A DNA stretch of 62,873 bases, counting the filler. It is 20 parts of 20 records of this genome, joined end to end, with 100 filler letters (N's around TTAATTAATTAA, not from the genome) between each part and the next. Parts side by side here need not be neighbours in the genome. Positions count along the whole stretch, not along the records: positions 25,777 to 29,535 come from SRR16133337_44559; 19 more parts are not named here. The stretch is one strand, 5' to 3'. A program made the position numbers and the translations under genes. Every line of letters starts with the position of its first letter. Position 1 is the stretch's first letter. The notes under the pieces are model-generated. The model was given only the letters and a program-made list of their open reading frames with translations. It searched no databases and had not been told where the DNA came from. Positions 8,913-55,858 of the stretch are shown here, one piece after another.

Positions 8913-9136
8913 CTAGAAAACATAAAAAAAGTATGAAGATAAAACAGTTAAGGGAAACGTGCTTTTCTGTGCAAGAAAATCGAACGATTGTTTAAGGTAG
9001 GAGACTGTCTAAGGANNNNNNNNNNNNNNNNNNNNNNNNNNNNNNNNNNNNNNNNNNNNTTAATTAATTAANNNNNNNNNNNNNNNNNNNNNNNNNNNNN
9101 NNNNNNNNNNNNNNNAAGACAACCCGACTGCAAGAC

Positions 9137-9166
9137 AAAAAAAACGGTATCACGGCATCACCGTTT
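9137..9166 (-). terminator. Rho-independent terminator of the sugar operon
   Basis: On the minus strand, an AAACGGT...ACCGTTT stem followed by a T-tract, about 20 nt after the eda stop. Confidence 0.65.
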
Positions 9167-9187
9167 CACCAGTTGATATTTTAACAT

Positions 9188-9820
9188 TTAAATAATTCTG
9201 GGAGGTACTTTTAACAGAGCATCCCTGACGTTGTTCTCAATAGTTTTATAATCACCTATCTCTGTAAGCTGTTTATTCGCCAACCAAGAACCCCCTATTG
9301 CCAGTACGTTTGGTAACTCTAAAAAATCGCTCATGTTTTGTAAAGTAATTCCCCCCATCGGAATAAACTTTAAATCGGTATCACCATAAGGACCGTTCAG
9401 GGCCTTTAACATTGTGACACCCCCTACTTGCATGCAAGGAAATAATTTTAGAGTTGTACAACCCATTTCAAAGGCCTTTTCAATTTCAGAAGGAGTCATA
9501 ACTCCAGGAATAAATGGCAATTCGTTAGCGATTGCAGCTTGCACAATATTCGGATTAAAACCGGGGGATAAACCAAATTTAGCACCTGCCTTTTTAGCCG
9601 CCTCTACTTGTTTGGTAGTAATGATGGTACCTGCTCCTACATATAAACTAGGAGATACCGATGTAACTTTTTTAATTACTTCCAAAGCAACAGAGGTTCT
9701 AAGTGGTATCTCCAAAACATTAAGGCCACCCAATGTAAATGCGGTAACAACTTCAACCGCTTTTTCAAGATTGTTAAAGGTTACCGCTGGTAATATCCGA
9801 TGTTCAAAAAAATGGCGCAT
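9188..9820 (-). CDS. eda: KDPG/KHG aldolase
   Basis: Motifs EIPLRT, VGAGT, PGVMTPSE, LKLFP (Schiff-base Lys), PMGGI and GGSW; 210 aa. Confidence 0.93.
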   Translation of the reverse strand: MRHFFEHRILPAVTFNNLEKAVEVVTAFTLGGLNVLEIPLRTSVALEVIKKVTSVSPSLYVGAGTIITTKQVEAAKKAGAKFGLSPGFNPNIVQAAIANELPFIPGVMTPSEIEKAFEMGCTTLKLFPCMQVGGVTMLKALNGPYGDTDLKFIPMGGITLQNMSDFLELPNVLAIGGSWLANKQLTEIGDYKTIENNVRDALLKVPPRII

Positions 9821-9821
9821 A

Positions 9822-10508
9822 TTAATCTTTTATGGCTTTCAATACTTTATCTGTTAGTTCTTTAACTGCTTTGTCACGCAGAATCTCACCATTCTTAAAA
9901 TCCGCTCTGCTAGGATTTCCATTTATACCTCCGGAAGCTTTATTTAAAGCGTACCTCGAACGTATTTTATACCATGGTTTATCCACCTTATAGTCTACTA
10001 CTCGATCCATGTAAACTTGAGTCCCGCAAGCTACTGCAACCTCTGTTTCTCCCTTACCTGCATGATGTATCCCATTTATACCACAGTCTGACCACCAATT
10101 CCAACAAGCACCTTTAAAATCCGGATAATTATCCCAAACTTTATTGAAAGCCAATTCGGTAGGTACTTTATTTGCCCCATGTCCGGTAAGAAAAATAATT
10201 TTTTTGAAGTCTTGAGCACAGAAGTTATTGCAAAGATCTACGATTACACTCATGAAGACCTCTACACTAAGGCCTAAACTACCTGGATATTCCCGCATCT
10301 CATCAGAAAAACCATAAGGAAGTGCCGGGACAAGAATTGCCCCTGTATTCTCAGCAACTTTTCGTGCAAAATACAAACTAGAATCTATATCAACACTAAC
10401 GGGTAAGTGGAGACCGTGAGCTTCGATTAAGCCTATGGGAACAATTACCGGTAAATTTCGGTCCAGAACTTGTATTTCGTCTGAAGTCAATTTAATCCAT
10501 TCCTTCAT
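9822..10508 (-). CDS. Creatininase-family metal-dependent amidohydrolase
   Basis: Metal-binding motifs GLIEAHGLHLPVSVD, TGHGAN and HAGKGET. Confidence 0.9.
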   Translation of the reverse strand: MKEWIKLTSDEIQVLDRNLPVIVPIGLIEAHGLHLPVSVDIDSSLYFARKVAENTGAILVPALPYGFSDEMREYPGSLGLSVEVFMSVIVDLCNNFCAQDFKKIIFLTGHGANKVPTELAFNKVWDNYPDFKGACWNWWSDCGINGIHHAGKGETEVAVACGTQVYMDRVVDYKVDKPWYKIRSRYALNKASGGINGNPSRADFKNGEILRDKAVKELTDKVLKAIKD

Positions 10509-10510
10509 TT

Positions 10511-11479
10511 TTAAATGATTTTTAGTCTTTTTAATAAATAGGTTGCTGCCCCAATAGCACTGCTGTATTCCTGGTTATCGGCAATTGCTATATCAATAGT
10601 ATCTTTTGTGGGATAATGAAATATACGTTGGTTTACAATCTTTTTCAACTTCTCTAAATAAAAATCTGCCGCAAGGGTAGCCCCACCACTTAATATGATT
10701 CTTTCTGGGGAATAGGCGTGAACCGCGTTTATTAAAAGGATTGCCAAATTATTTATCCAAATCTCTAATTCTGCCAAGCAAATTGTGTCTCCTCTCTTAC
10801 AGGCAGCTATAATTTGTTCAAAATCGATGTTTAAAGGATTCTCAAAATAAGTTTCCGAAAGTACTGAAGGTAACCCTCTTTGAATGGCATTCCTGACCTG
10901 AAGAGTCAGTGCTGTCGCCGAGCAGCTGATTTCTCCAGTCCCAAAGTTTCCAGTTAAGCAAGTATTATCGGAGGACTTATCCATTACGATATGTCCTAAT
11001 TGTGTCCCGACTTGGAAATGGGAATCCTCTAAAATTTCACCGTTGAGTAATACCCCAGAGCCGATTCCAGTGCCAATGGTCAACACCACTGCCCAATCTA
11101 CATCTTTTGCATTGCCAAAATAACGTGCCGCGTACATGGCTAGTCTACCATCGTTATTGGCAAATACCGGAAGCCCAAATTCTTCCCTAAGTTTTGAGAC
11201 AATTGGATACCCCTCCAATTTTTTATATTTCCCTGGAAGCAGTACAACCCCCTTCTCAGGGTCTATAACACCACTTAAACTCAGGGCAATGCCCTGAGGT
11301 TTGTCGTGTTTGGAAATTATTTTTTTTACGGAAGCATAAATGTTGTCATACAAAACTGCGGCACCTTCATTGGCACTCCCGCTAGTGGCTGTACCTTCTA
11401 TGAGTTGACCGTTGACTGATATGATTGCTGTCTTGAGTCTTGTTCCTCCAACGTCAAATGAAATTACATAGTTCTCCAT
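10511..11479 (-). CDS. ROK-family sugar kinase
   Basis: Motifs DVGGT, NND and LTIGTGIGSG, plus a divergent GHI..C..G..G zinc region. No N-terminal HTH. Confidence 0.92.
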   Translation of the reverse strand: MENYVISFDVGGTRLKTAIISVNGQLIEGTATSGSANEGAAVLYDNIYASVKKIISKHDKPQGIALSLSGVIDPEKGVVLLPGKYKKLEGYPIVSKLREEFGLPVFANNDGRLAMYAARYFGNAKDVDWAVVLTIGTGIGSGVLLNGEILEDSHFQVGTQLGHIVMDKSSDNTCLTGNFGTGEISCSATALTLQVRNAIQRGLPSVLSETYFENPLNIDFEQIIAACKRGDTICLAELEIWINNLAILLINAVHAYSPERIILSGGATLAADFYLEKLKKIVNQRIFHYPTKDTIDIAIADNQEYSSAIGAATYLLKRLKII

Positions 11480-11484
11480 ATTAT

Positions 11485-12807
11485 TTAGATTAGGGCATTT
11501 GTTTTCTTTAGAATTCTCTGTAAATCCGTAATATCAACATGTTTTGGTCTCACATGCTGTTTTATTGCTAGTACCGCAGCATTTCCTACTGCTTCTCCCA
11601 TGGTCATACATTGAGCCATAGATCTTACACTTGAATGTGCAACGTGATTGGCAGAGAAACATCTACCGGCTACAAAAACATTTCCACTATTTTTAGGGAC
11701 CAATGTCCTGTAAGGGATCCCTACTGTTTCTCCTTCAGGTAGATATTGCCATTTCACGCCCTCACCATCATGATGATCCTCCATCGGTGCACCACATAAT
11801 CCAATTTGGTCATCAAATTTAAGTGCGGATAAAACATCCTCAGCGGTCAGTCGATATTCGCCAATGACTCTTCTTGTTTCGCGAACCCCAATTTGCATTC
11901 CGAAAGAAGAAAGTTCTGCTTTCTCGTAACCTAGAACATAATCTTTTAGAAACCGGATATATTCAATCGCTTGTATACGCCCTTTGATTTCTGCAGCACT
12001 CAAAAAATCAGCATCAGACGCATTGATTACATTCCCGTTCTGGTCTTTTTCAAAGGATTTCAATCTTGTCATGATTGTAGCAGTCATATGATCGACTGGT
12101 GTAATATGGTCACTACCTTCTTTTCGAGGTAAATTATAGTTTCCAGTTGCTACTGCCTTTTCCATAAGGGTATTCACCTGTTGTTTTGAAACCTTTTTGC
12201 GTTTTTGCACATTGACGTTTACCATTTTAAATGTAGTGGTCAACGTTTGTGCTGGATCTATTTGCCCCGCTAACTCATAAGGTAAACCTGCTTGATGACA
12301 AATATCTGCATCACCAGAAGCATCAATGACCTCTTTACACTCGAAAATTTTTAATCCATTTTTGGTAGCAACAACCAATCCAGAGACTTTATCATGCTCC
12401 ATAATTACATCCTGTACCCAGGCATTCAGAAGTATATGGCAGCCTGCATCTCTTACCAATTTCTCCCATACAACCTTTAAATATTCAGGGTGATAGGTAA
12501 TCCCAGTTCCAGCTCCAAAGCTGTTGGGTCTATTAAAGCAAGCATTATACTTTTTTAATCCCTTAACCACGTCATCAGCAATCCCTCCAACAACTTTTAT
12601 TGATTGCGATCCTGGAGTATAGTAGCCATAAAAAGTGTCCAAAACCGCTGTACTGGTTCCACCTAAAAAAGGTAATCTTTCCAACAAAAGCGTTTTAGCT
12701 CCAGTTCTTGCTGCTGCAATGGCCGCCGTTGCTCCAGCGGATCCCGCTCCAACGACAATGATGTCAAAACTTCCCGCTTCTATTAATTTAGTTTCAAATT
12801 TTCTCAT
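11485..12807 (-). CDS. FAD-dependent oxidoreductase (FAD_oxidored/PF12831-like)
   Basis: Motifs VVGAGSAG, LLER..LGG, IDASGDAD, GVRETRR..GEY, IPYRTLVP and AGRCFS..H..S.R.M..C..MGEA.G. Start placed at MRKFE (12807) to avoid overlapping the SDR gene. Confidence 0.9.
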   Translation of the reverse strand: MRKFETKLIEAGSFDIIVVGAGSAGATAAIAAARTGAKTLLLERLPFLGGTSTAVLDTFYGYYTPGSQSIKVVGGIADDVVKGLKKYNACFNRPNSFGAGTGITYHPEYLKVVWEKLVRDAGCHILLNAWVQDVIMEHDKVSGLVVATKNGLKIFECKEVIDASGDADICHQAGLPYELAGQIDPAQTLTTTFKMVNVNVQKRKKVSKQQVNTLMEKAVATGNYNLPRKEGSDHITPVDHMTATIMTRLKSFEKDQNGNVINASDADFLSAAEIKGRIQAIEYIRFLKDYVLGYEKAELSSFGMQIGVRETRRVIGEYRLTAEDVLSALKFDDQIGLCGAPMEDHHDGEGVKWQYLPEGETVGIPYRTLVPKNSGNVFVAGRCFSANHVAHSSVRSMAQCMTMGEAVGNAAVLAIKQHVRPKHVDITDLQRILKKTNALI

Positions 12808-12829
12808 ATTGAAGTCATTTACAATTTTA

Positions 12830-13615
12830 TCAACCCGAAATACTCCATCCGGCATCTACCTTTAATATTTCCCCTGTAATTACTTTACTTTGATTACTCA
12901 ACAAAAAAACGGATGCTTCGGCGACATCCTTTGCCTTCATAAGGTTTTCGACCAACGGTTGCTTTATCTTCATAAAATCGACAATTTGATCATTTTCAGA
13001 AGCTCTTTTGCTCATTCTAGTCAAGGCAAGCCCTGGAGCAATTGCATTTACTCGAATTTTATCATGGGCATATTTTGAGGCCATGGAAAGAGTCATACTA
13101 ATAATGGCTCCTTTGGCCGCAGCATAGCTGATTGTGCTAAAAAATTTTGGTTCAGGAGAAATCCCTAAAATACTTGCCATATTTAAAATACATCCACGTA
13201 ATCCATCTCCATCAGGTGATTGCTTTAACATTTGTTTTACTACTTCTCGACACATCCTATATTGGGTGGTAACATTTGTTGTTATTGTTGTTTCCCAACC
13301 CTCTTCCGTACATTCGTGAATGGGACCATCTCCGAAACTTCTGCCACTTATACCCGCTACATTGAACAAACCATCTATTCGTCCATATTTTTTAATACAG
13401 TTATCCACTAGTTCAATGGCTACCTTGGGTTTTACCAAATCGCCTACCATATAATCAGCATTCAAATCACATTTAAGAAGTTGGTTTTGGAAATTTTTAC
13501 ATCTTTCGGAATCCCTTCCAATAAAGTAGACCTTGGCACCTTTGGCCAAAACCAATTTTATAGTTTCCGCAGCAATACCTGATGAACCCGTTATGATAAA
13601 TATCTTATTCTCCAT
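12830..13615 (-). CDS. Short-chain dehydrogenase/reductase
   Basis: Motifs ITGSSGIA, NVAG, catalytic S and YAAAK, IRVNAIAPG and VDAGW. Start at MENK lies 1 nt after the upstream stop. Confidence 0.92.
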   Translation of the reverse strand: MENKIFIITGSSGIAAETIKLVLAKGAKVYFIGRDSERCKNFQNQLLKCDLNADYMVGDLVKPKVAIELVDNCIKKYGRIDGLFNVAGISGRSFGDGPIHECTEEGWETTITTNVTTQYRMCREVVKQMLKQSPDGDGLRGCILNMASILGISPEPKFFSTISYAAAKGAIISMTLSMASKYAHDKIRVNAIAPGLALTRMSKRASENDQIVDFMKIKQPLVENLMKAKDVAEASVFLLSNQSKVITGEILKVDAGWSISG

Positions 13616-13616
13616 A

Positions 13617-14459
13617 TTACTTTCTATTTTCAATGGTTTTCTTAGGTTTCACCCTTTTAGGATTGTGTAGAGCCCTAGCATATCTTTTGTGTTGATCACG
13701 CATCCATTCATTATAGTTATCCGTTGAATCGCTTATATGCATATTACGCAATACCTGATGATGGTAGCCTCTGTTATCCAGTTCTCGGATAGTAAGTTCG
13801 TTCAATGATTGAATTACCGAAAGGGCTCCGATTGAGGATAAAGGGCATACCTGATACGTCTCGAGTTGTCCATTTACCGTAACGGATAGGTCTCCATATG
13901 GCATACCATTATCAATAAAATAGCCATTACTGGCTTTGTCAATAACATGAATCAGATTGATGCCCGAGCTGTGTTTGGTCTGAGATTCCCTAGATTGAAC
14001 TTCCGATGCAATAGCTACAATTGCATGATCTGGGTATCTATTGTTGAATTCAATGGCCATATCAACAGCAGCGGGTGTTGTACCTGTTGCCGTAACTACA
14101 ACCATTACATCCTTTGGACCCACATCATACTCGTTCAATATATTTGTGGCAATGCCCTCATAACGTTCTATTCCTTGATTAACACGTATTCCGTTAGCCC
14201 CCACTACATTTGTAAAGGAGGTGAGACCCACCTGAACAATTCCATGAAACCCTGTCAGTGCTCCCATGCGAACGCAAACTTCTTCCACTGAGATACGCGA
14301 ATGTCCGTTGGCGTAGACGTAAATCACCCCTCCATCCATGATTGCATCCGCATAAATCTCACTTACTTGTTGAAGTATACTTATTTGACGGAATAATCCT
14401 TTTTTTATCGTATTCAGTTGATGCGGAAACGATAATTCGATCTGTTTTTTAGATTTCAT
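13617..14459 (-). CDS. SIS-domain (sugar isomerase/phosphosugar-binding) protein
   Basis: Motifs IYVYANGHS, DVMVVVTATGT, IDNGMPYGD and CPLSS, typical of single-SIS proteins. Confidence 0.8.
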   Translation of the reverse strand: MKSKKQIELSFPHQLNTIKKGLFRQISILQQVSEIYADAIMDGGVIYVYANGHSRISVEEVCVRMGALTGFHGIVQVGLTSFTNVVGANGIRVNQGIERYEGIATNILNEYDVGPKDVMVVVTATGTTPAAVDMAIEFNNRYPDHAIVAIASEVQSRESQTKHSSGINLIHVIDKASNGYFIDNGMPYGDLSVTVNGQLETYQVCPLSSIGALSVIQSLNELTIRELDNRGYHHQVLRNMHISDSTDNYNEWMRDQHKRYARALHNPKRVKPKKTIENRK

Positions 14460-14510
14460 TTTTATTTCAACTATTTAGATTCAAGTCCAATGTCATGTTC
14501 ATCATTTAAT

Positions 14511-16079
14511 TCAACTAAACACTATATAAAAAAGGGCTATTGTAGTTATTAATACCAAAGAACCAATATTATACAAATTGGAAGCATCCTGTTTGGTTTT
14601 CGATATATTCAATTCGGGTACAACCCGTTTATCGTTTATACTAATGAAAATGGCCACGATCAATAGCATTATAAAGGTAAAAGACATCCGGTCTAAAAAC
14701 GCTAGTTGTGGCAGAAAGGCTTTGAACATTACAGAGATCGGTATCGTTAGTAATACCACCCATAGTGCTGCTTTGCTAGTCATTTTTTTCCAAAAAAGCC
14801 CGGTAAGGAATAGGCACACAACTCCTGGAGCTACAAAGCCTGTATATTCTTGGATGAAGTAAAACAATTTTCCCATGGAAACAACAAAAGGGGTTGTAAT
14901 AATGGCAATAAGTAAGGCAATAGCTGTAACAATCCTTCCTGTAAATATCAATTCGTAATTCGTAGCTTTTTGATGAATCATTTTTTTATAGACATCCATA
15001 GTAAAGATTGTAGCGACACTATTACATATAGCATTAAGGGAAGAAATTATGGCGGCTATCAAGGCTGCGATGACCAATCCGGAGTACCCTGCGGGCAAAA
15101 GTTCACGTATTAGTACTGGGAATGCCTGATCTCTTGCAGTTATCTGATCGGAAAATAATTCACTTGCAACAACCCCAGGTATGACTATAATTATTGAAAC
15201 GATTATGGACAGGATGGCTGCAAATAATAATCCATGCTGGGCTTCCTTCAAATTTTTTGCCGCTAATGCCCTTTGGATAATATATTGATTACATCCCCAA
15301 TAGCTTATCGCTGCAATCCACAACCCACCAAGAAAAACACCTGTCCATGGAAGTTCATTATGAGTAGCAGGCAAAACAGTATGGAACTTATCGGATTGTT
15401 CTTCTAACAATTTAGATATCCCAGTGAACAGACCACTACCTTGGTGTTTTACTGCGACTTGCTCCAAACCTAACCAGACCACTGCTAGACCGCCTATAAT
15501 GAGTACTCCTACCTGAATAAAATCCGTCCAAGCTACAGCCGAAAGTCCTCCGTAAATGGTATATATTGCAGAAAAGGCAGCCAATCCTATTATACTATAA
15601 ATAATAGGAATTCCTAATACGGCTTCAAGGGTTATGGCTCCCAAAGATAGTACGCTCGTTAAGTTTACGAATACGTAGACCAAAATCCAAAACACCCCCA
15701 TTAGTGTACTTACCTTATTATTGAACCTCTTCTCCAAAAATTCAGGCATACTATAAATCTTACCCTTTAGAAATCTGGGAAGAAAATATTTGCCCACCAG
15801 TAATATGGTTATCGCCCCACCTACCAGAGAATAGGATATTACTGCTATACCGCTTTCAAAAGCAGTACCATTCATCCCTATAATTTGTTCAGTGGAAATA
15901 TTTGAAGCGACCAAAGATGCCCCGATAATCCACCAAGGTAGTGATCTGCCTGCCAAAAAATAATCCTCGGCTTTTCTCTTATGATTCTTTGGTTTCCTTG
16001 AAACATAAATGGCGATTCCAATTACGAGAACAAAATAAATACCAAATACCAGATAATCTAGTGTTTCTAAAATCTTCAT
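14511..16079 (-). CDS. Sodium:solute (sugar) symporter, SSS family
   Basis: Motifs DYFLAGRSLPWW, ASNISTEQ, YTIYGGL.AV.WTD, WGCNQYIIQR and A.IFTMD.Y; many TM segments. Confidence 0.95.
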   Translation of the reverse strand: MKILETLDYLVFGIYFVLVIGIAIYVSRKPKNHKRKAEDYFLAGRSLPWWIIGASLVASNISTEQIIGMNGTAFESGIAVISYSLVGGAITILLVGKYFLPRFLKGKIYSMPEFLEKRFNNKVSTLMGVFWILVYVFVNLTSVLSLGAITLEAVLGIPIIYSIIGLAAFSAIYTIYGGLSAVAWTDFIQVGVLIIGGLAVVWLGLEQVAVKHQGSGLFTGISKLLEEQSDKFHTVLPATHNELPWTGVFLGGLWIAAISYWGCNQYIIQRALAAKNLKEAQHGLLFAAILSIIVSIIIVIPGVVASELFSDQITARDQAFPVLIRELLPAGYSGLVIAALIAAIISSLNAICNSVATIFTMDVYKKMIHQKATNYELIFTGRIVTAIALLIAIITTPFVVSMGKLFYFIQEYTGFVAPGVVCLFLTGLFWKKMTSKAALWVVLLTIPISVMFKAFLPQLAFLDRMSFTFIMLLIVAIFISINDKRVVPELNISKTKQDASNLYNIGSLVLITTIALFYIVFS

Positions 16080-16141
16080 TCCGTTCTTGATTGTTTAATC
16101 ATTTGGGTTCATCATATAAAAATTCACACTACTTAATGCAA

Positions 16142-16149
16142 CAAAGGTA
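16142..16149 (-). promoter_or_regulatory. Bacteroidota -7 promoter element for the operon
   Basis: TACCTTTG matches the TAnnTTTG consensus about 62 nt upstream of the SSS start, in the divergent intergenic region. No clear -33 element. Confidence 0.5.
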
Positions 16150-16277
16150 AGGTTTGAATCAAGTCTATTTCTACAAGTAAGTTTCCTTATACCTATACTA
16201 AGTTATCATTAAATTATGATATTTTTGTAATTAGAAGAAAATAAATGTAACTTGTTTTTATAATTAAGAAAAAATAG

Positions 16278-17062
16278 ATGAAACCCGTTTTAGAACATCT
16301 GCTTCCAGAGAATAGAGAATCATTTTTCGCAGAGGCCTTTGACTTGCCAAACTTTGGAACTCCATGGCATTATCATTCTGAGTATGAATTAGTTTTTATT
16401 GTAGAAAGTCATGGTAAAAGACTAATAGGAAATACAATATCTGATTTTAAGAAAGGGGATTTAAGCTTTTTAGGTTCCAACTTGCCTCATATATATCGTA
16501 ATCCAAGTGAATATTATGAAAAAAACCCAGATAAAAGGGCAAAATCTATTGTAGTTCATTTTCTGGAAAAGTCTTTCGGGGATGGATTTCTGAACCTTCC
16601 ACAAGCAAAAAACATCAGAAAATTCCTAGAACTCTCAAAACAGGGCATCGATATTACTGGTAACACCAAGAAAATTGCTATCGAAAAGTTGAAGAATCTT
16701 ATTGAAACAACTGGTATGGAACGGCTATTAATCTTGATTGAATTGTTGAACTTATTTGCGAATACTAAGGAGTATCGCCTTATTTCCGAAATTAATATTA
16801 AAGGCCATAATGCTTCCGACTCTAAACGTATGGACAAAGTATTTCAGTATGTTTTTAAAAATTTCCGTTCAGAAATAAACTTAGAGGAAATTTCACGGAT
16901 TGTTGCTTTGACCCCTACCTCTTTTTGCAGATTTTTCAAACAACGAACAAAAAAATCGTTCTATAAATTTGTTGTCGATTTTCGTTTGAATATTGCCTCC
17001 CAACAACTCATAGAAACTAATAAGAACATTCTTGAAATATGTTTTGATAACGGATTTAATAA
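16278..17062 (+). CDS. AraC-family transcriptional regulator (3' end cut by the contig end)
   Basis: Cupin PWHYHSEYEL..GSNLPH and C-terminal HTH SFCRFFK..R...A...L...CFDNGFN. Divergent from the operon. Confidence 0.93.
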
Positions 17063-18410: not shown

Positions 18411-20371
18411 TCAATTTAGCTGTTGAAGAAACGTATGATATTGAATATTATTAAGAAATAACTCTACCAGTTTTAAAGCTATATTTTTAGCCCTTTCTTT
18501 GGATCCATTATTGGCATATTGATAAGCCAATAAATACAATAAACTTTCATTGTTAGGAACTATTTTTAAACCTCTAAGAACAGTTTTCTCAGCCATTGGA
18601 ATATTTTTAATATTATAGTATAACAAACTTAAATTATAATATACTCGAATATTTTCTGACATATATTTTGTTGCCAATTCCATTTGTACAATAACCTCTT
18701 CAGTTCTTTTTAATTCAGCAAGTAATAAACCATAAGAATAGTAGGTAGCTCCATAGTCAGGTTCTTGTTTGATAATAGTTTTAAAAGCAATTTCTGCTTT
18801 TTCAAAATCTTTATTTTGATAGTATAAATTAGCCAAATTAGTTCTTACTATATTGTTGATTGGATCCATATATAAAGCATTTTCATAGCCTTTGATTGCC
18901 AAACTCAAATCGCCTTTTTTAGATAGTAATTCGCTCTTTTAATTCTTCCACCTACAAAATCAGCAGTAACCTTTAAATAGGTAAAAAATTATTCTCTTAC
19001 TTTTTTATAAAGCCTAAGATAATTCGCAGGAATTTGATTTTCATTAAAACTCCCCAAAGCATTAAAAGCCTTAATACGAACAGCTCTTTTCTTGTCCTTA
19101 AGCAAGGGTAAAAAATAGTTTAAATATTCAGGATTTGAAATTTCATTCAAAGCATCTACACTAGCTCCTCTGACTATTGGAGATTCATCATTTAAAAAAT
19201 TTAAGAGTTCATTTACGGTAGTCGTATTTCTATAATTACTTAATTCATTGACGGCGGAAGCTCTTGCAATTTCTGGCTGTGTAGTATCTTTTGCCAAAAT
19301 TATTAAAGATTCTAAGGCATTAGACGCCTGTGTCAAACCAGAGGCTAACAATTCTGAAAAATGAATAGCATCAGGAATCCCATATTGTTCTATAAATTTT
19401 TCTGAAGCCCAATGATTGTCCTTATCCATATGACAACTCACACAAGCATTTGGCGTGTTGTATTTTACACTTAAATCAGGTCTTGGAATTCGAAAACTAT
19501 GGTCACGTCTAAAATCATTTCCCATATAAAATTTACCTGGCATATGACAGTTAATGCATTTTGCTCCTTCTGTTTCTTTAGAATGAAAATGATGCTTTTC
19601 AGTATCATATTTTTCAGGAACATGACATTGAGTACACAATTGATTGCCCTTAAATTTTAATTCTAAAGAATGGGGGTTGTGACAGTGGGTACAAGTTACA
19701 TCATGGAGGTACATTTTACTTTGTACAAAAGAACCATACACATAAGTTTCATCCAAAATTTGACCATCAGGATGGTAAATCCCTTTAGTAATTAATTGTG
19801 GAAAATAATGATCTAGCAGGGTGCCTTCAAAATTAAAATTTGCTGAAATTTGTTCCCTTCTCATATGACAACGTGCACATTAATCTACCAATTCTTTAGG
19901 TTTTGTATCCAAAGTCATTTGCATCGTACCAGAATCTCTATAATTTTCACCTTGTGTATTCACCTCATCAATATGTTGTTTTCCAGAACCGTGACAAGCT
20001 TCACAACTTACATTTATCAAGGCAAATTTAGTATCATAACGATGCGTTTTTTCATCGTAATTTTTTTAAACATTGGTAGAATGACAATCTGCACACATTG
20101 TGTTCCAATTTAATCCCCCTCTAGACCAATGCAACCATTCTGAATGTACTACTTTAAAATCGGGATACAGATCAAACCATTTTTTCTTTTCAGAATCCCA
20201 AGCAGTTCTTAAACATTGATAATGACCCTTAGGAAATTTTACGATATACTGTTGTAAAGGAAAGATTCCAAATACATATTCAATTTTGTAGTTGTGGTTT
20301 TTACCATCAGGTCCTTCGGTGTTTACATAAAAATCGCCATTCTTCCTAAAAAAACGAGATTTTACATTTTG
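18411..20371 (-). pseudogene. Multiheme c-type cytochrome with HEAT and TPR repeats, disrupted (5' end truncated)
   Basis: Seven CxxCH motifs lie in one frame, followed by HEAT and TPR repeats. In-frame TAA at 20066-68, 19880-82 and 18989-91, plus a 1-nt deletion in an A-run near 18915-20. Confidence 0.85.
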
Positions 20372-24338: not shown

Positions 24339-25806
24339 TGTACACAAAAAAACTATGTTTCACACAGTCTACATTTAAACTATGAATCGCAAAACTTCAA
24401 CTTTGTGTACATCTATGTGTAGAAAATGAAAAATTTACCATTGAGTCTTTGAAACAAGCGTTTTCTGAACAAGAATAACTGAATTCTTGGGAAAACAGTA
24501 CAAACAAAGTACACAAATTTGGCCAAAAAAAGAAAATTAATTGGGTATCCATTAATTGTTTAGAGGGAGGTATGGTTTCATGCATTACTTTAGAAAGTTT
24601 TTTTCTGAAATTAAAAAATCCCTTTAATGTTTCTCAATAAAAACATTCGTGCTCTCATGAAATTTTCATAAGTAAAATTTACCTATGTACTTTTTTCAAT
24701 TCATATAAATAGTATACGCTCGCTCCCCTTCGCATAGTTGTTAAAAGAACCACCCACATTTTCGTGTGTAGAAGGAGGAAAACGTGACGACTAGAGGGTG
24801 TGCAAAAACGTGACGCACTGTGACGAAGGTCGGGTGTGGGTGTTAAAAAACAGAAAAATATGCGTGACACATTTTATGGATGGTCCCTTTCTATAACACC
24901 AGATTTCGGTAGATGTTGGTTATGGGGACAATTTGTACTGTGAGGTTGTTGGTTTTCCAAGAAAAAAAAGGACATGAAAATTATCGTTCGATATTCAGTT
25001 GTTTGGCCTTTCCCTTCGACATCTGGGATATTCACACTTCTACATTAGTTTTCGGTTATCGAATTTCATATATGAAACAATGTGAAATAATTACATCCCA
25101 CTACGTCCATATTAACATTTTTAAGCAAATTGAAGGGTTTTTTTCAAAATCCATTGGTGTCCTGAACAGGCAAAACCCAATGAGAGGCGCACCATGGGAA
25201 AATGCATTCATTTTTTTGCTCGTGGAAACAAAGTTTCTAAATTTTGAAATAATTTTTTCCTCTTAAATCTATAGGGCCAACACTTTCGCTTTAAAGATTT
25301 TTCTATGGTCAATCCCATTCCAACAAACCAGAAAAAGGTGCAAAAAGCCCCAAAAATCATTTTTCATTTTTCCGTTTGTGAAATTGATATTTTCAAAACA
25401 AATATTCAAAAAACGAAAAAGCTCAACCAATGATATTTTTTTTTGAACAGTGACGTTTTGTTTTTGGGGATCTCTTTCTTTTTTTTTTTTTTCAAATTTA
25501 GTCACTGAAAAAATCTCCATGAAAAACTAAAATTTTATGACATCATCATATTTATGCATCTTAAAAATTCAATACAACTAAAAATTAAATTTCAACAATC
25601 TTGTGGTGTGTTGTTATGTCAACTTTTAACCAATTGTTTAGTTATGGGATTGACTATTCTTATTTTTCATTATTTCNNNNNNNNNNNNNNNNNNNNNNNN
25701 NNNNNNNNNNNNNNNNNNNNTTAATTAATTAANNNNNNNNNNNNNNNNNNNNNNNNNNNNNNNNNNNNNNNNNNNNTGTGTTTGTGCGAAGGTGAACAAA
25801 ATAGAT

Positions 25807-26336
25807 CTATTAGCACAGAATTGCATACTGTGATTCACAGTTTTTTGCAAAGGAAATGCTAGTAAAAAATCTGTGATTCATAGTTTTTGTGTTGTGAAAA
25901 AAATGTCGATCACAGTTTTAAAAGAAAGTTGAGTTCTATTTTTCTTTGGGACTTAACTTTCACGGTGTAAAGGACTTAACTTTTTTTGACATGTTAATCA
26001 TAAATTTTGTAAATCACAGTGCGAAGAATTCTGTGGTTAGTGCTGGTGTGAAATTGTTGGTGTTTGTTTTTTGTTGAGCGTTAACTCTGCAAATATTGTG
26101 AATGACGGTATGCAAAATTGTATTAATAGTATTTATATAGTACAGAAACTGTGATGAATGGTTAAAAGAAAGTTAAGTTTGTTAACTGGTTGAAAATTAG
26201 TCCCAAGTAAAGAAAGAACTTAATTTTTTTTCAAAACTCTGAATCACATTTTTTTCATGGTGTAAAAATTGTGAATCACTGTTTTTTTATTGAGCAAATA
26301 GTTTTTTAGTCACAGTACGCAAAACTGTGCGGATAG
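25807..26336. repeat. Foldback element with about 200-bp diverged inverted arms
   Basis: About 25807-26005 is the imperfect reverse complement of about 26143-26336, and both contain internal CTGTGATTCACAG-like motifs. It lies about 90 nt past the integrase stop. Confidence 0.75.
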
Positions 26337-26424
26337 TTTTGAGGTGTATTGTTGTTAAAATGCATTGGGTGAAAGTAATTATGATTTTTTTTAAATGGTT
26401 TGGTTTTATGTTAAATAATATTAA

Positions 26425-29301
26425 TTATTGGTTTTCATCGATATAATCCTGTATAAGAGAATACGATACTGCACATGTGGATGTCCTAATTCCTGCCAAT
26501 TTGTTTGTTGAGTTAGAAAGATATTTAAGCTCTCCAGTTTCCAAATCATGTTGGTATATTTTGCCGTCGGTGTTACGGAATTGAAGGATGTGGCTCTCCC
26601 ATTCTGTTGCTTTTCTGACAATCCTTGTTTGCAGTTTGTACGTCTAAAAAAATATTGATAAAGTAGATGTTAGTATTTGTAGTTTATAAAGTAATTTTTG
26701 TTTAATACAAGTGTTTGTGTAAGTATTTTGTCATTACCATTTTTTTGATGACAATTGCTGGTGCAAAGTTGCATTTCTGCATAGCGTCTTCTGTGCCAGT
26801 TAGTATTATTGACAGTGGTAATGGTTGGAATCGTCTAGTATATTGGGCGTCTGAAGAGTTGCAGGAAGAACAGGTTTTTGTTTTTGATGTTCCTGTATAG
26901 AAGAGTGTATTTATGATGTCCCAGGCGGTTATAATGTTTGACGATAATCCTATTTTTCCGTCGCTAAAGGTGATTCGTTCTAATTCCTCGTCTAAATCAA
27001 TTGCTATTCTATGTCGTTCGTAGGTTGTTCCTATTTCTGGAGAGATTACTTGATTGTTGAAACTTGCAGGGCATTTATCTCCTCTAAAGTAAAGTAGTAA
27101 CAAAGAATAATTAGGATATTAAGAATTTTGTTTTTGAAATGTGTGGTGTGTGGAATGTTTTTGTTATGGTGTTTTCTGTACTTACTGGCATAACATTGTG
27201 GTTTTAGGTGTGAATCCCATTGTAGGATTTTTGAACAACTGTGCGGTTGGTGGAATGTCGAATGGAATTATTTTGAGAAAGTTCTGCATTTCATATACAT
27301 ATTTCGTTTGGTAGTATTCATCTTGCATTTTGTGCTCCATCTTGTTTTGTAGGAGCGATATAATATCATTTTCTATTTGTTCGCTGCTGAACCTTGTCAA
27401 GAATACTGATTTTGTTAGCAACCTGGCGAGCATAGTGTTGGAGAGGTTGTGTTTGTCTTCGTATATTTGTTTTGCAAGTTTGTCGAAGTCGTCATGGTGA
27501 GAGAAGAAAATTATATGAAGTAGTGCGGTTGTTGTTAGTATAACTCCATAGTCATGGTTTTGTTGTTGTAGGTGGCGAAATTTAAATTGTGGCAGCTCTT
27601 GTTGTTTGTCTTCTTTCTTTCTTTTTGACGGCTTAGCAGGATCTTCGAGAAGAGAGTCCTAGATAATATATGTTCGGTTAATGAAAGTTGTTGTTAAATT
27701 TGTTTCAAATGTTTGTTTTTTAAATGGAAATATACTTACTGTTTTTCGTTTTTGCATTTCTTCTCCTACTTTGAAGTCATGGTCGTTGTTATCGTTGTAG
27801 TGCATTGCTTGGATGTGTTGGTCGTATTTCTGTAGAAAAAACAAATTACTTGTTAGAATGTTAATTTTTGTCGGTTATATAATTTTTTTTTTATGTTATT
27901 TTACTTACTGTCCATCCGTGAGCTAATGCCTTTTTCACTTCCTCGTTGGGAATGAGGGATAGTTCATTGAAGCAGTATTGAGTTGATGATGTGCAACCAG
28001 CCTCAAGACTATCGGGGTTCTTGTTGCATGTGTATGTTATTCTGCACATTTGATCTCTGGTAATCTCAGTCACTATGCCTGTTACATCCCACATGGATTC
28101 GTAACCGTAGTTTTTGTTCCGAAGGTCTTTGGCAGGTAACTGATAGTAAACAAAGTCACCCAGGTCAAAGTTTGTGACTTTGTGGTTTCTCTTGTTGTCA
28201 GCAATTGTACGATCGATTCTTTTTTGCTTTGCCTATAAAAGAAATTCTCAGTTAGATTTATAATAAGAATGCATTGCTGTTTGTATGTGTGTTTGATGTT
28301 TATTTACCTTAACCAAGCCGTCCATCATGTCATCACAGTGCCTACTAGTAAGTATCTTTTCAGTTTGAAGAAACTTGTGTACTGCGAAAGTAGTACGTCC
28401 TGTTCGTCCACGCCACATTGTCATTGGAGAAACGCGTCTCTGTGCCGATATTTTTGTATTTGTTTGGTTCACGACTGTTGGTAGACATTGTGACCAGTTT
28501 GAGATTCTGTTTATATCATGACTGAGATACGCTTGAAGGTTTCGACGGAGTTCCTTGTTTCTTGTTTCTGCCATGCCCTGAAAAAGAATGTGTATAAACG
28601 AATTATTTTTCTGGGGTTTTAAGAGTGTAATTTTGTGTTAATTGTACTTACATTGGACCGGGATTTATGTGGTGTTATTGTTTTGAGTTTCGAGGCGATC
28701 TCTTTGAGGTAGTCTTTGAGGTATCCTCGAAATTCGCCTCCATTGTCTGAACGCATGTATGTAGGAACGATATTCTCCTGAAAGAAAATTTCGTCGAGTA
28801 GCTCTACAATTTGTTCTGAACGCTTTGTTCGTAGTGCACGTGCGAAGAGGAATAGTGTAGCATTGTCTGTTATTGTGAACACGTACCGAAAGCCTCTCAA
28901 GTCAACACACATTTCAAACAGGTCAATACACCATTCACCACCGGCCTTGGAAGTGTTGGTAAATTTGCAGTAGTACATTTCTCCTTTAGGTTTGTACTTT
29001 GCTATGCAGCTCGCGCATCTTGCTGCGTTTTCTGATACAAGAATTTGTACATCGGGCACGTAATAGAGTGATCCAATGCCATATTTTGTCGAATTTATAC
29101 CTATAATATGAGAAATAAGTTTTTTAGAGTGTGTTATTTTTTTTGTTTTTGTACTATTGGAAAGAACAAGATAATACTACTTACCACAGCAAATATCGTT
29201 GTGGCATTTTCTGATAATATTTGGTAGTTCATCCATGTGTGGCACAGTTCTCCATTTTGGGTGATGTTGGCTTGGGTAGAGGTTACATTCTAACCATTCG
29301 G
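26425..29301 (-). mobile_element. Intron-containing Ginger/TDD-like DDE integrase gene with a C-terminal USP-like domain (at least 761 aa, 5' partial)
   Basis: Exons 29301-29185, 29100-28652, 28577-28308, 28232-27909, 27829-27740, 27658-27186, 27083-26738 and 26643-26425 join in frame through 74-102-nt GT-AG introns. Domains: Zn finger (CHNDICCG...YYVP...CASC), rve core (WCIDL, SDNGGEF, SNGMAE), FDLGDFV (GPY/F-like), then USP-like motifs. Confidence 0.88.
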
Positions 29302-30071
29302 CTAAGAAGCAATCAAGATAGTTTTAGTGATAGGTTGTAGTATATTTTATTTTGATTCAAGTAATGAGAAAAGTAGCAGTTTGAAAAAGAATAAGTTTTA
29401 ATATTAAAGTCTATTACAGAGCTGTTGAACGTTGTAAATGGAGATTTAAATAGTGGTACGTACTCCATTGGTATAGTAGAGTGTGTTTTAAATGTTTTAG
29501 GAAAATTTTAATTTTGACTTGTTTTCGAAGAAAAANNNNNNNNNNNNNNNNNNNNNNNNNNNNNNNNNNNNNNNNNNNNTTAATTAATTAANNNNNNNNN
29601 NNNNNNNNNNNNNNNNNNNNNNNNNNNNNNNNNNNGGTGGGTGTTATTCATTGATATGTTCTGTAGACCAACCTGTAGAGTTTTTTGGAAAACAAAAACA
29701 TGCAAAATTGTACTGGAAGAGTTTTGAAGATATGTTCTCGGAAATAATTTGTCAAAAATTGCGAATCCACAAATGTTTTTAAAACGTTTGGAATCTTTGA
29801 TGTCGTGACGTCACTATTTTCTCTTTTTGTGTGTTAGTTCCGTACACTCTTGGGAATGAGATTTTGCCACTTTTACAAGAATACGGGAAACTTTCTGATT
29901 CGATGGCAAAAGTTATTATCGAATATTGTGCAGGTAATATGCCACAACAACTATCTTATTTCTCTTTGTGATGTGCATAAATGTTGAATAAAATTTGTGC
30001 AGAGGGGAATCACTTTGGTTACTGTGCACTAAATTCTTATATTTTGTGTGTGTGTGTGTGTGTTTTTGTAG

Positions 30072-52991: not shown

Positions 52992-53550
52992 ACTCATGAT
53001 GTGGATCTTAAATGTGTTAAACTAATTTAAGTATAATTAAGAGACATTTTTAATCAAAAAAATATGTTTAATTCTACTGTAAAGGTACAAATAAGGTACA
53101 TATTAATACAAAATAAACGATTAACTTTACAAATAAAAACGATAGTGTGTATTCTGTTTACTAAGTTTTATCTTGTTTATAAAGGTTTTGTTGTGTGTTT
53201 GTATATTGTTTGTTTTGTGAGGTTACTTCCCAATACAAAAAGTGGTTATCTATTACAATAAGAAAATGATTTGATTTGTGATACCCGTTATTATACTAAA
53301 AACACTTGGAAATCGAAACTTTTAGGGATCTCTTTTGGCTTTTAACTACGTTCCCATTGGAAACGATAGCGATACCATCCTTGAAAATTAAACCTTGCTA
53401 CTCGCAAAAATAAGGGGACTCAATTCCCGAAAACCTAGTATTTTTAGTATATTTGAAATTTATTCCCTATTTAACATCAAAAATTGTTACATATTATAAA
53501 TTATTTATCTTCTCCATTTACAAACAAATCTAATCACAATTGTAAATTAT

Positions 53551-55023
53551 ATGAAAACGAAATGGAATGTTATCTTTCTTTTTATCTTTATTTTTTATGT
53601 GTTCTTTCCCACGAATAATTCTACACAAGATGCTTATGCGTACGCAGGTTATGTGAAGTACAATCATTTTTTGTTTACCCCACACCATCTGTTCAACAAT
53701 GCCTTGGTATTTTTAGTAAATTCTTTTCTTAAAACCCTAGGATTAAGGATGGATATATTGTCATTAGCCAAAATTTTGAATAGTATTTTTGCGATTTTTA
53801 ATTTAATTATTTTTAAGAATATTTTGACCCTATTAAAAATCCCTAAAAAAGAAATAATTGCCTATGTACTCATTCTCGGTTTTTCTTTTAGTCCTTGGAG
53901 ATATGGTACAGAAAATGAAACGTATATCATTCCTATTACATTTTCATTATTAGGAAGTTTTCACTTCTTAAAATTCACGAGAGTTGACAAAAACAAAAAT
54001 CTTTTTTTAAGCGGTCTTTTTGCAATGACGGCCTGTTTATTTCATCAAATACATTTTTTTTGGTGGTTGGGCTTACTTATAGGTGCTTATTTGCAAAAGA
54101 AAACAATAAAAACCCTTTTTGTTTATACAAGTACTGCTATTGTGGTTCCTATGAGTTACCTTCTGGTTCTTATTTATTACGAAAATCAGAATTTAACTTT
54201 TGGGAACTTTACCCGTTTTGTGTTTCATGATTTTTATGGAGGCACTGTTACAACCGGTTTTGGATGGAAAGGTCTATTTTTTCAAGGACTCAATAGTTTT
54301 AGAACTTTTTTTCAAGTACATCCTAATATCTATTTTTTAATAAAAAAGAATTTTCTTTTTATCATTCCTCTTTTTTTGGGGATCCTTCTTTGCGTTCAAT
54401 TTTTAAGGAAAATCTTAAAAAAACAATGGGTTACAAAGAGAATACACAAAGAGCCTCTTTTTATAAAAACGCATATTTCTATAGGCATTGCCAATTATTT
54501 ATTTGCGTATTACAACGTAGGAAATATTGAATTTATGGTGATGTTGCCTTATCTTTTGATTTTAGGTGTTGTCCTTAAATACCGAATAAACGATAAACTT
54601 CTGCGAACTTTTTCTGTAACGCTCTTCTTATGGAATTTTAGTTATGGAATTTTGCCGAATCATTTTTTCAACTACTATCATGATGATTTTCTAGTGGATT
54701 ATATGATAGAAAATCCAACGAATATCTATATTGTAAAAAACGCATTTGTACGGAATCATTATTTTTATAAAACAGGAATAGACAGTCCTCCGAATATCAT
54801 CCCATATTACAAAGTTGATAAAAAATTAGTAGAGGAACTTTTACAAGCAAAGAATTTTATTTTTACAGATGTCATCGATAAACCTGAAATTTTCAACAAA
54901 GAAAAAATAATCACAAAAAACAAGGTTTCTGGCATTTTAAAAAAGTATCCGAAAACAAAAATCACTACTTATAAAGGATTTTATGGAAAATCGACCCTTT
55001 ATAAAATTGAAAACAATCCTTAA
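53551..55023 (+). CDS. GT-C-like polytopic membrane protein (putative glycosyltransferase)
   Basis: 490 aa with many TM segments; D-A-Y.Y loop, PHHL and WRYGTENETY motifs. TATATTTG (-7 element) at 53448. Confidence 0.7.
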   Translation: MKTKWNVIFLFIFIFYVFFPTNNSTQDAYAYAGYVKYNHFLFTPHHLFNNALVFLVNSFLKTLGLRMDILSLAKILNSIFAIFNLIIFKNILTLLKIPKKEIIAYVLILGFSFSPWRYGTENETYIIPITFSLLGSFHFLKFTRVDKNKNLFLSGLFAMTACLFHQIHFFWWLGLLIGAYLQKKTIKTLFVYTSTAIVVPMSYLLVLIYYENQNLTFGNFTRFVFHDFYGGTVTTGFGWKGLFFQGLNSFRTFFQVHPNIYFLIKKNFLFIIPLFLGILLCVQFLRKILKKQWVTKRIHKEPLFIKTHISIGIANYLFAYYNVGNIEFMVMLPYLLILGVVLKYRINDKLLRTFSVTLFLWNFSYGILPNHFFNYYHDDFLVDYMIENPTNIYIVKNAFVRNHYFYKTGIDSPPNIIPYYKVDKKLVEELLQAKNFIFTDVIDKPEIFNKEKIITKNKVSGILKKYPKTKITTYKGFYGKSTLYKIENNP

Positions 55024-55180
55024 ATTACTGAATCCTATAGAACCCTAAAGTTGAATCCTAAAGAATTTATAAAAAACGGTCAACTCTAACTAGACGGAAT
55101 CTATAAATCAAAGACGATACATAACTTTCCAAAAAAACCAAAACTCCGTACTCAAAACTAAATTAAGTACCTTTATCCCT

Positions 55181-55858
55181 ATGAGAATTGATATTATTAC
55201 CGTTTCGCCAGAATTGATTCAAAGTCCCTTTAAATACTCCATTTTAAAAAGAGCTATCGACAAAGGATTGGCTAAAGTGTACTTTCACAATTTACGAGAG
55301 TTTGCACTCAACAAATACAATAAAATTGATGATTCTCCATTTGGAGGGGGGGCAGGAATGGTCTTGATGATGGAACCGATAGACAAATGTATTTCTAAAT
55401 TAAAAGCGGAAAGAGACTATGATGAGATCATCTATATGACTCCAGATGCTCCGATATTAAATCAACAAACGGCCAATACCTTATCTTTAAAAGAAAACAT
55501 CATCCTACTTTGTGGGCATTACAAAGGGGTTGATCAACGGGTACGTGATTTGTGGATTACCAAAGAAATCTCTATTGGTAATTATGTATTGAGTGGAGGT
55601 GAATTGGGGGCTGCTGTTCTCTGTGACAGTATGATTCGTTTAATTCCAGGAGTTTTAGGAGATGAAACTTCTGCATTAACCGATTCCTTTCAAGACGGCT
55701 TACTATCTCCACCTATTTATACAAGACCCTCAACATACAAAGGAGCTACTGTTCCTAAAATATTGCTTTCTGGAAATTTTCCTAAAATAGATAAATGGAG
55801 AACGGAACAGGCTTATGAAAGAACAAAACGAATAAAACCAGAATTGTTGGATGAATAG
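55181..55858 (+). CDS. trmD: tRNA (guanine-N1)-methyltransferase
   Basis: Motifs MRIDIIT, DDSPFGGGAGM, LCGHYKGVDQR, SIGNYVLSGGE and PIYTRP. Confidence 0.98.
   Translation: MRIDIITVSPELIQSPFKYSILKRAIDKGLAKVYFHNLREFALNKYNKIDDSPFGGGAGMVLMMEPIDKCISKLKAERDYDEIIYMTPDAPILNQQTANTLSLKENIILLCGHYKGVDQRVRDLWITKEISIGNYVLSGGELGAAVLCDSMIRLIPGVLGDETSALTDSFQDGLLSPPIYTRPSTYKGATVPKILLSGNFPKIDKWRTEQAYERTKRIKPELLDE

Follow-up and report, generated by a model that had tools for sequence, protein, structure and literature searches.

Ubiquitin-system domains on integrase-type transposases are already known, and what may be new at the locus described here is an integrase with a cysteine-less tail that possibly resembles a ubiquitin-specific protease (USP). 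The locus raises the question of what this tail is and whether the protein belongs to a mobile element. The window, i.e., the whole stretch of DNA analysed (62,873 nucleotides), is made of 20 contigs of 2.0-7.9 kb with N44-TTAATTAATTAA-N44 linkers between them (e.g., 25677-25776 and 29536-29635), and the gene lies on its own contig of 3,759 bp at 25777-29535. Since the linkers join separate contigs, bacterial as well as eukaryote-like, neighbours across them are meaningless as genomic context. The analysis establishes an eight-exon gene model, an integrase domain fused to a tail, a family of relatives and the absence of a cysteine where the catalytic one would sit. Slightly favoured is a joint reading in which a Gypsy/Ginger1-type integrase is followed by a basic linker and a conserved tail of ~345 amino acids with a divergent USP fold that lacks the catalytic Cys.

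Gene model and integrase

An earlier note on this DNA had described eight exons that splice into one stop-free frame of at least 761 amino acids, and this is confirmed. Eight minus-strand exons, bounded by GT..AG introns, splice to a single frame that encodes 740 amino acids plus stop from the ATG at 29236, or 762 codons from 29301, in which the sole stop is the last codon. The exons are listed below.

Exon 1, 29236 (or 29301)-29185, minus strand: ATG at 29236-29234; first zinc-finger half, with H12 at 29203-29201 and C16 and C17 at 29191-29186.
Exon 2, 29100-28652, minus strand: C46-x2-C49 at 29017-29006; D77 at 28924-28922; D136 at 28747-28745; match to Pfam rve.
Exon 3, 28577-28308, minus strand: catalytic E171 at 28568-28566 in GMAETRNKEL; remainder of the core.
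Exon 4, 28232-27909, minus strand: SH3-like GPY/F-type module, as read from its motifs, with FDLGDFV at 28169-28149, W..TGIV and YCFNELSLIP.
Exon 5, 27829-27740, minus strand: variable linker of 30 amino acids, a stretch bridged by one uninterrupted open reading frame (ORF) in relatives.
Exon 6, 27658-27186, minus strand: KPSKRKK at 27634-27614, resembling a nuclear localization signal; helical domain; D-Y-G-V at 27553-27542; C552 at 27190-27188, at the end of the exon.
Exon 7, 27083-26738, minus strand: C557 at 27073-27071, which completes C-x4-C; CSSC at 26872-26861; RRFQPLPLSII at 26836-26804.
Exon 8, 26643-26425, minus strand: His-box-like YKLQTRIV...ESH(686)...GKIYQHD(701) at 26640-26545; stop TAA at 26427-26425.

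The seven introns measure 84, 74, 75, 79, 81, 102, and 94 nt. Five donors read GTAAGT, one GTAAAT and one GTAATG, and all seven acceptors are YAG after a T-rich run. On the coding strand, G makes up 13-21% of every exon (17% for exons as a whole), with a peak at codon position 1, whereas introns have 6% and the two flanks 9%; in these non-coding parts A accounts for 39-45%. Given the non-coding composition of this strand, an open frame of 72 codons has a chance probability of ~0.004 and one of 157 codons of ~6e-6; the eight-exon open frame exceeds chance. For exon 8, which has no comparative support, the evidence consists of the logic of splicing, an open frame and a composition like that of the other exons (17% G). 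The other motifs listed in the earlier note are also found in the spliced product, namely KPSKRKK, CQGDKC (encoded across the exon 6/7 junction), CSSC, RRFQPLPLSII and the His-box-like start of exon 8. We regard the gene as an intact nuclear gene of a eukaryote with short introns, whose contig was binned among bacterial contigs.

The integrase part is recognized by profile as well as by motif. Exon 2 matches Pfam rve with an E value of 1.9e-10 (41.4 bits), and there is a weak match to the integrase of prototype foamy virus (PFV), from the zinc-finger end through the core, at E 0.008. The DDE triad consists of D77, D136, and E171, spaced by 58 and 34 residues, in agreement with the D,D(34)E core described before. 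The zinc finger with Cys at the second His position is likewise in place as H12-x3-C16(C17)-x29-C46-x2-C49; intron 1 splits the motif, and it gives no Pfam zinc-finger match. Exon 4 holds F..GD.V, W..TGIV and the closing YCFNELSLIP, which are conserved in the relatives (W.VQGFIV, HGFIV), whereas the G-P-Y/F triad itself is degenerate and absent, and the module has no Pfam match. At the level of motifs, this layout appears to be that of a GPY/F-type SH3-like module; the motif given earlier as F.GD.V is present, but its actual spacing is F..GD.V. Because zinc finger, DDE core, and GPY/F-type layout occur together, the enzyme is classified from its sequence as a Gypsy/Ginger1-type integrase. The GPY/F module sets Ginger1 and Gypsy apart from Ginger2 (PMC2836005), and membership in GingerRoot was rejected since GingerRoot is described as lacking the HHCC and GPY motifs (PMC6839031).

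The conserved tail and its fold

The family was collected with an exhaustive phmmer search of 1.84 billion representative proteins, with exon 6 as the query and a cut-off of E<=0.001. Five matches were obtained, of which P0002, a low-complexity proline-rich repeat protein, was dropped and four (P0001, P0003, P0004, and P0005) were kept. These relatives are unnamed fragments, 22-26% identical to exon 6, and form single-member clusters, each seen on one contig of 1.2-1.9 kb in Logan and ENA. Word-index protein searches with exon 6 and exon 2 returned no relatives, a family profile search matched only two of the family's own members, and no related loci were found in metagenome contigs, viral contigs or genome contigs.

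The relatives decide whether the tail belongs to the integrase. In the four-sequence set, spliced residues 270-596 (exons 4, 5, 6, and 7) align in one stretch with residues 5-322 of P0004 (94.5 bits), and further single-stretch alignments join residues 320-547 with P0001 and 306-552 with P0005; exon 4 faces the N-terminal part of each of these three relatives. In three of the four relatives, an uninterrupted ORF runs from the end of the integrase into the tail across the exon 4/5 and 5/6 junctions, and that of P0004 continues through the 6/7 junction with its C-x4-C (CKNPGC ... IIDLD ... F.DG). Since these single ORFs span integrase end, linker, and tail, the tail as a separate gene is rejected up to mid exon 7. 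The fusion of an integrase with a C-terminal domain in one protein, as claimed before, is by this comparison of sequences real and conserved. P0001, P0003, and P0005 end in C-R, C-W, and C-R followed by a stop, exactly at the site of the phase-2 intron 6. These ends match read-through of a phase-2 NN|GTAAGT donor, so that intron 6 is probably common to the gene and these three relatives.

A USP fold of the tail is fairly probable. Two independent weak leads, the language-model neighbours of P0004 and the structural matches of exon 6, converge weakly on USP/UCH. Among the named clusters of the ESM Atlas, UCH clusters account for 20 of 30 matches to residues 125-325 of P0004, the best of them at 0.92, 0.91, and 0.91; exon 7 alone gave low recognition and no family. 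In the structural comparison of the first model, that of exon 6, USP-fold chains fill 7-8 of 50 low-Z matches, the eighth being a doubtful row, 5mpc chain 8. The USP rows of this list cover model residues ~32-153, the TetR-type rows ~80 residues, and the matched USP chain ranges presumably start a few residues before the catalytic Cys. Five of the 50 structural matches of the second model have the USP fold (USP18, two PAN2 entries, USP9X, and USP7). As USP-type sequences are 110 of the 177,635 distinct PDB sequences (~0.06%), the rows in the two lists amount to a large over-representation. In addition, the motifs pointed out earlier in exons 7 and 8 are collinear with USP order, and a low-confidence secondary structure prediction for exon 7, with three strands, a helix at AWDIINTLFY and a strand at LSII, would follow the same order.

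A larger number of tests speaks against the assignment. Pfam UCH and UCH_1 were unmatched at E<=1 by exon 6 and at E<=10 by the exon 6-intron-exon 7 read-through, exon 7, exon 8, and P0004, and no USP occurs among the PDB sequence matches at E<=10. A home-made USP hidden Markov model (HMM), built from 98 domains of viral-contig loci (120 fetched by a Cys-box DNA pattern), gave the spliced tail -0.8 bits, a score reached by 516 of 1000 shuffles. With hhalign, the single sequence gave a P value of 0.37, family profiles gave 0.41 and 0.26, and a further profile comparison gave 0.5; shuffles reached the real score in 36 of 100 cases (global) and 23 of 100 (local). The AlphaFold model of exon 6 with its four relatives is all-helical with a predicted local distance difference test (pLDDT) score of 60, and that of the exon 6-intron-exon 7 read-through has a pLDDT of 42; both were made with one alignment and one program, hence they are not independent. 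Foldseek found no match to the exon 6 model at E<=0.001, and the top match in either structural list is a P loader chain of phage lambda. The UCH matches in the ESM Atlas share only 131-134 of 256 features, and 4-10 of 100 shuffled proteins score as high as 0.9 by a calibration that is not for protein parts. Finally, exons 7 and 8, which carry the best of the motifs, are without relatives save for 50 residues of P0004.

The USP-like tail put forward in the earlier note thus keeps the language-model neighbours and the over-represented USP chains in its favour, while Pfam, HMM, hhalign, and shuffles all fail to support it.

The sampled ORFs of the viral Cys-box loci all match Pfam UCH (8/8). Across these loci (L001-L120), many giant-virus metagenome contigs encode compact USP domains of ~260-400 amino acids, and one class of ~260 amino acids begins directly at the Cys box.

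It is also possible, though less probable, that the tail is no USP but a helical domain followed by a four-cysteine zinc ribbon and a small beta domain, maybe for DNA or chromatin targeting, and that the USP-like motifs arose by chance. Such a tail would leave three things to coincidence: the language-model features and the structure, which are different inputs taken from P0004 and exon 6, both pick USP/UCH among thousands of families; the motifs of exons 7 and 8 keep the USP order; and a class as rare in the PDB as USP recurs in both structural lists.

Mobility and catalytic state

Whether the gene still moves is a second question, on which we lean somewhat towards mobility rather than a domesticated gene. 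Ginger1 elements are defined by terminal inverted repeats (TIRs) of 40-270 bp with TGTNR termini and by a 4-bp CCGG/CCGT target site duplication (TSD; Bao, Kapitonov and Jurka 2010, PMC2836005). The 299 bp of 5' flank share no inverted repeat with the 3' flank, on a contig that is too short to exclude TIRs, and neither a TSD nor a second copy is seen on this short contig; tblastn with the spliced protein likewise found no second copy in the window. These results may count against mobility.

The alternative is a host gene that stems from a Ginger-like transposase but has been domesticated and no longer moves, like GIN1, GIN2, and Imagin; we hold this to be possible though doubtful. Its seven introns resemble the 6-8 of GIN host genes more than the 0-4 of Ginger1 transposons (PMC2836005), the intact frame in a strongly G-depleting background argues for purifying selection, each of the four relatives is known from one contig, and no TIR flanks the gene. 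Against domestication, both DDE triad and zinc finger have been retained intact, whereas Imagin has lost its E (PMC12863088); intron content varies among the relatives, P0004 being without introns 4-6; the contig leaves little room for TIRs to be seen; and Ginger1 families are themselves low-copy (PMC2836005).

A third possibility, that the gene is the 3' part of the pol of an intron-containing LTR retrotransposon (Gypsy/Metaviridae-like) whose reverse transcriptase (RT) and RNase H exons lie beyond the contig end, is improbable and turns on the sequence upstream of the ATG. There the frame stays open to an in-frame stop at 29326-29324, about 22-29 codons, with an acceptor-like CTTAG at 29302, and the G content jumps from 2-4% to 16-18% at ~29301 and not at the ATG. 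The segment 29237-29301 looks like coding sequence. It reads ..RTVPHMDELPNIIRKCH, which we take to resemble the V-P...I-L...H stretch that leads into the zinc finger in Gypsy-type integrases. The G step and the acceptor-like site indicate that exon 1 probably starts at 29301 and that at least one further 5' exon exists, as an LTR element would have it. A candidate first coding exon at 29468-29418 (ATG ... GTAATA) was rejected because its phase does not match the 29301 acceptor, and by our own reading of the sequence the 234 bp that remain are G-poor and contain no upstream exon whose phase would fit; any such exon would lie off the contig. Seven spliceosomal introns would be unusual for an LTR element, and the contig holds no LTR-like direct repeat. 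The absence of RT, gag, or LTR from the contig, reported earlier, is true but weak, as the contig has only 3,759 bp, 299 bp of it upstream of the ATG. An upstream exon is explained equally well by the ~40 amino acids with a YPYY motif that Ginger1 transposases carry before the zinc finger (PMC2836005).

The catalytic state of the tail is clearer than its fold. At the place of the Cys box the gene reads HDYGVILTTT and relatives read DFGVFMAS, DYGVFISS, and EFGVSMAA, a D-[YF]-G-V-x-[LMI] pattern in which G38 and V39 are invariant in all five members and Cys occurs in none; exon 6 has no Cys at all before its last codon. The motif order claimed for the tail survives in part, with the two Zn pairs, the R.F..LPLSII-type stretch and the His-box-like start in place but no Cys in the Cys-box position. 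Exon 8 shows Y-x-L-x3-I-x8-S-H ... G-K-I-Y-x-H-D, a resemblance at the motif level, without relatives or a significant alignment. An active C19 deubiquitinase, as implied in the earlier note, would find H686 and D701 in a His-box-like context, but since none of the five members has a Cys at the Cys-box place it is predicted to be unlikely, and we give it hardly any credence. Two other candidate boxes were discarded. QYCFNELSLI, from the last part of exon 4, was considered for the Cys box, but its Cys is not conserved in the relatives and it fits the closing strand of the SH3-like module; YQTKYVYEMQNFL was a first guess for a Q-Q-D..E box. PAN2 has a pseudo-USP, and it and other dead USP folds lack the catalytic Cys and serve as a scaffold or binding module beside a nucleic-acid enzyme. 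By analogy with PAN2, a dead-USP binding module would be the reading that fits the tail, although there is no detectable sequence relation and PAN2 is a deadenylase subunit, not a transposase.

Surroundings and known systems

The 3' flank of the gene contains an inverted repeat resembling a miniature inverted-repeat transposable element (MITE).

Foldback/MITE-like inverted repeat, arms 25857-25990 and 26161-26296, 3' flank of the gene: arms of ~135 bp, 170 bp apart.

It has five TGTGAWTCACA-like motifs, and in one marine metagenome run (X2) foldback pieces occur with a contig depth above that of coding pieces and with other flanks, so it looks like a separate dispersed MITE-like repeat. Two marine metagenome runs held short contigs only (31-243 nt), the longer pieces of which (151-243 nt) are near-identical with 0-4 differing letters, and no flank extension of the contig was gained from them. 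The strong strand asymmetry of the gene's whole contig may be due to a host mutational bias, a transcription-linked bias or editing; elsewhere in the window, GC skew is near 0 for most contigs, with three at a magnitude of 0.13-0.15.

Several contigs of the window are clearly bacterial, and others are ORF-poor, eukaryote-like and almost without long ORFs. A bacterial sugar-utilisation operon on the minus strand at 9116-17062 encodes KDPG aldolase, creatininase-family, ROK kinase, FAD-dependent oxidoreductase, SDR, and SIS-domain proteins and an SSF sodium:solute symporter. The contig at 17163-20393 encodes RpiB, TPR and HEAT proteins; its 296-residue ORF on the minus strand at 18989-19879 has HEAT repeats together with a doubled CXXCH motif of the multihaem type. 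On the bacterial contig at 51995-57481, a 507-residue ORF with no Pfam match is followed on the plus strand (53500-57329) by TrmD (tRNA m1G methyltransferase) and then a PMT_2 glycosyltransferase.

The protein shares with Ginger1 transposases a Gypsy-like integrase, a zinc finger, a DDE core, a probable GPY/F-type module and GT-AG introns, a length within 500-800 amino acids, and an extra C-terminal domain, which in Ginger1 comes from the ubiquitin/SUMO protease world (PMC2836005). It differs from them in its seven introns, as against 0-4, in the change of the second zinc-finger His to Cys and in the degenerate GPY/F triad (PMC2836005). The tail is also neither OTU nor Ulp1 but possibly USP-like, without the nucleophile; Pfam OTU and Peptidase_C48 were unmatched at E<=1 by exon 6 and at E<=10 by the exon 6-7 read-through, exon 7, and exon 8. 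Like GIN1 and GIN2 (PMC2836005) and Imagin (PMC12863088), the gene is multi-exon, low-copy, integrase-like and without visible TIRs; unlike here, none of these is described with a USP-like tail, and the catalytic E lost from Imagin is retained, with D, D, and E all intact.

Precedents for the combination come from other transposition systems. A Trichomonas vaginalis protein joins a transposase_11 and a Peptidase C19 domain and thus sets a precedent for a DNA transposase with a USP-class domain, but it is an IS5-like DDE transposase rather than an integrase, and the C19 domain in it can be recognised from the sequence (PMC2836005). Helitron/Helentron elements encode VTD and OTU deubiquitinases, of which inactive, domesticated versions exist; they differ from the present gene in their RepHel transposition enzyme and in using other protease folds (PMC9741609). 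In the full-text literature, supplementary alignments aside, no integrase-USP fusion was found, the closest being the remark on Trichomonas in PMC2836005.

With the joint reading of an integrase followed by a nucleophile-less USP-like tail, a mechanism can be proposed. The basic stretch KPSKRKK would bring the protein into the nucleus, where the intact DDE triad would move a low-copy DNA element of the Ginger-like kind by cut-and-paste or strand transfer. The tail, a very divergent thumb-fingers-palm USP fold that has lost the catalytic Cys, would bind, not cleave, ubiquitin or a ubiquitin-like mark; this binding is what we infer for the tail. The dead-USP tail would then act as a targeting or partner-binding module, in place of the OTU or Ulp1 protease domains of Ginger1 transposases. 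Chromodomains steer chromoviruses, and the proposed USP-fold reader would steer integration likewise. The fullest form of this proposal is a tentative one that we think rather unlikely: a rare, undescribed Gypsy/Ginger-type integrase lineage of marine micro-eukaryotes or small animals in which OTU/Ulp1 has been replaced by a nucleophile-less USP fold, a reader of ubiquitin marks that steers integration to ubiquitylated chromatin or a host factor.

The family is very rare, with four relatives in 1.84 billion proteins, and the contig at 25777-29535 is the most complete member found. If the reading of the tail is true, a cysteine-less USP-like domain on a conserved integrase would mean that selection can act on binding instead of cleavage, and a third protease class would be added to the Ginger-type repertoire. 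It would also bear on why mobile elements keep recruiting folds of the ubiquitin system, as integrase-type elements have done with OTU and Ulp1 and Helitrons with OTU and VTD.

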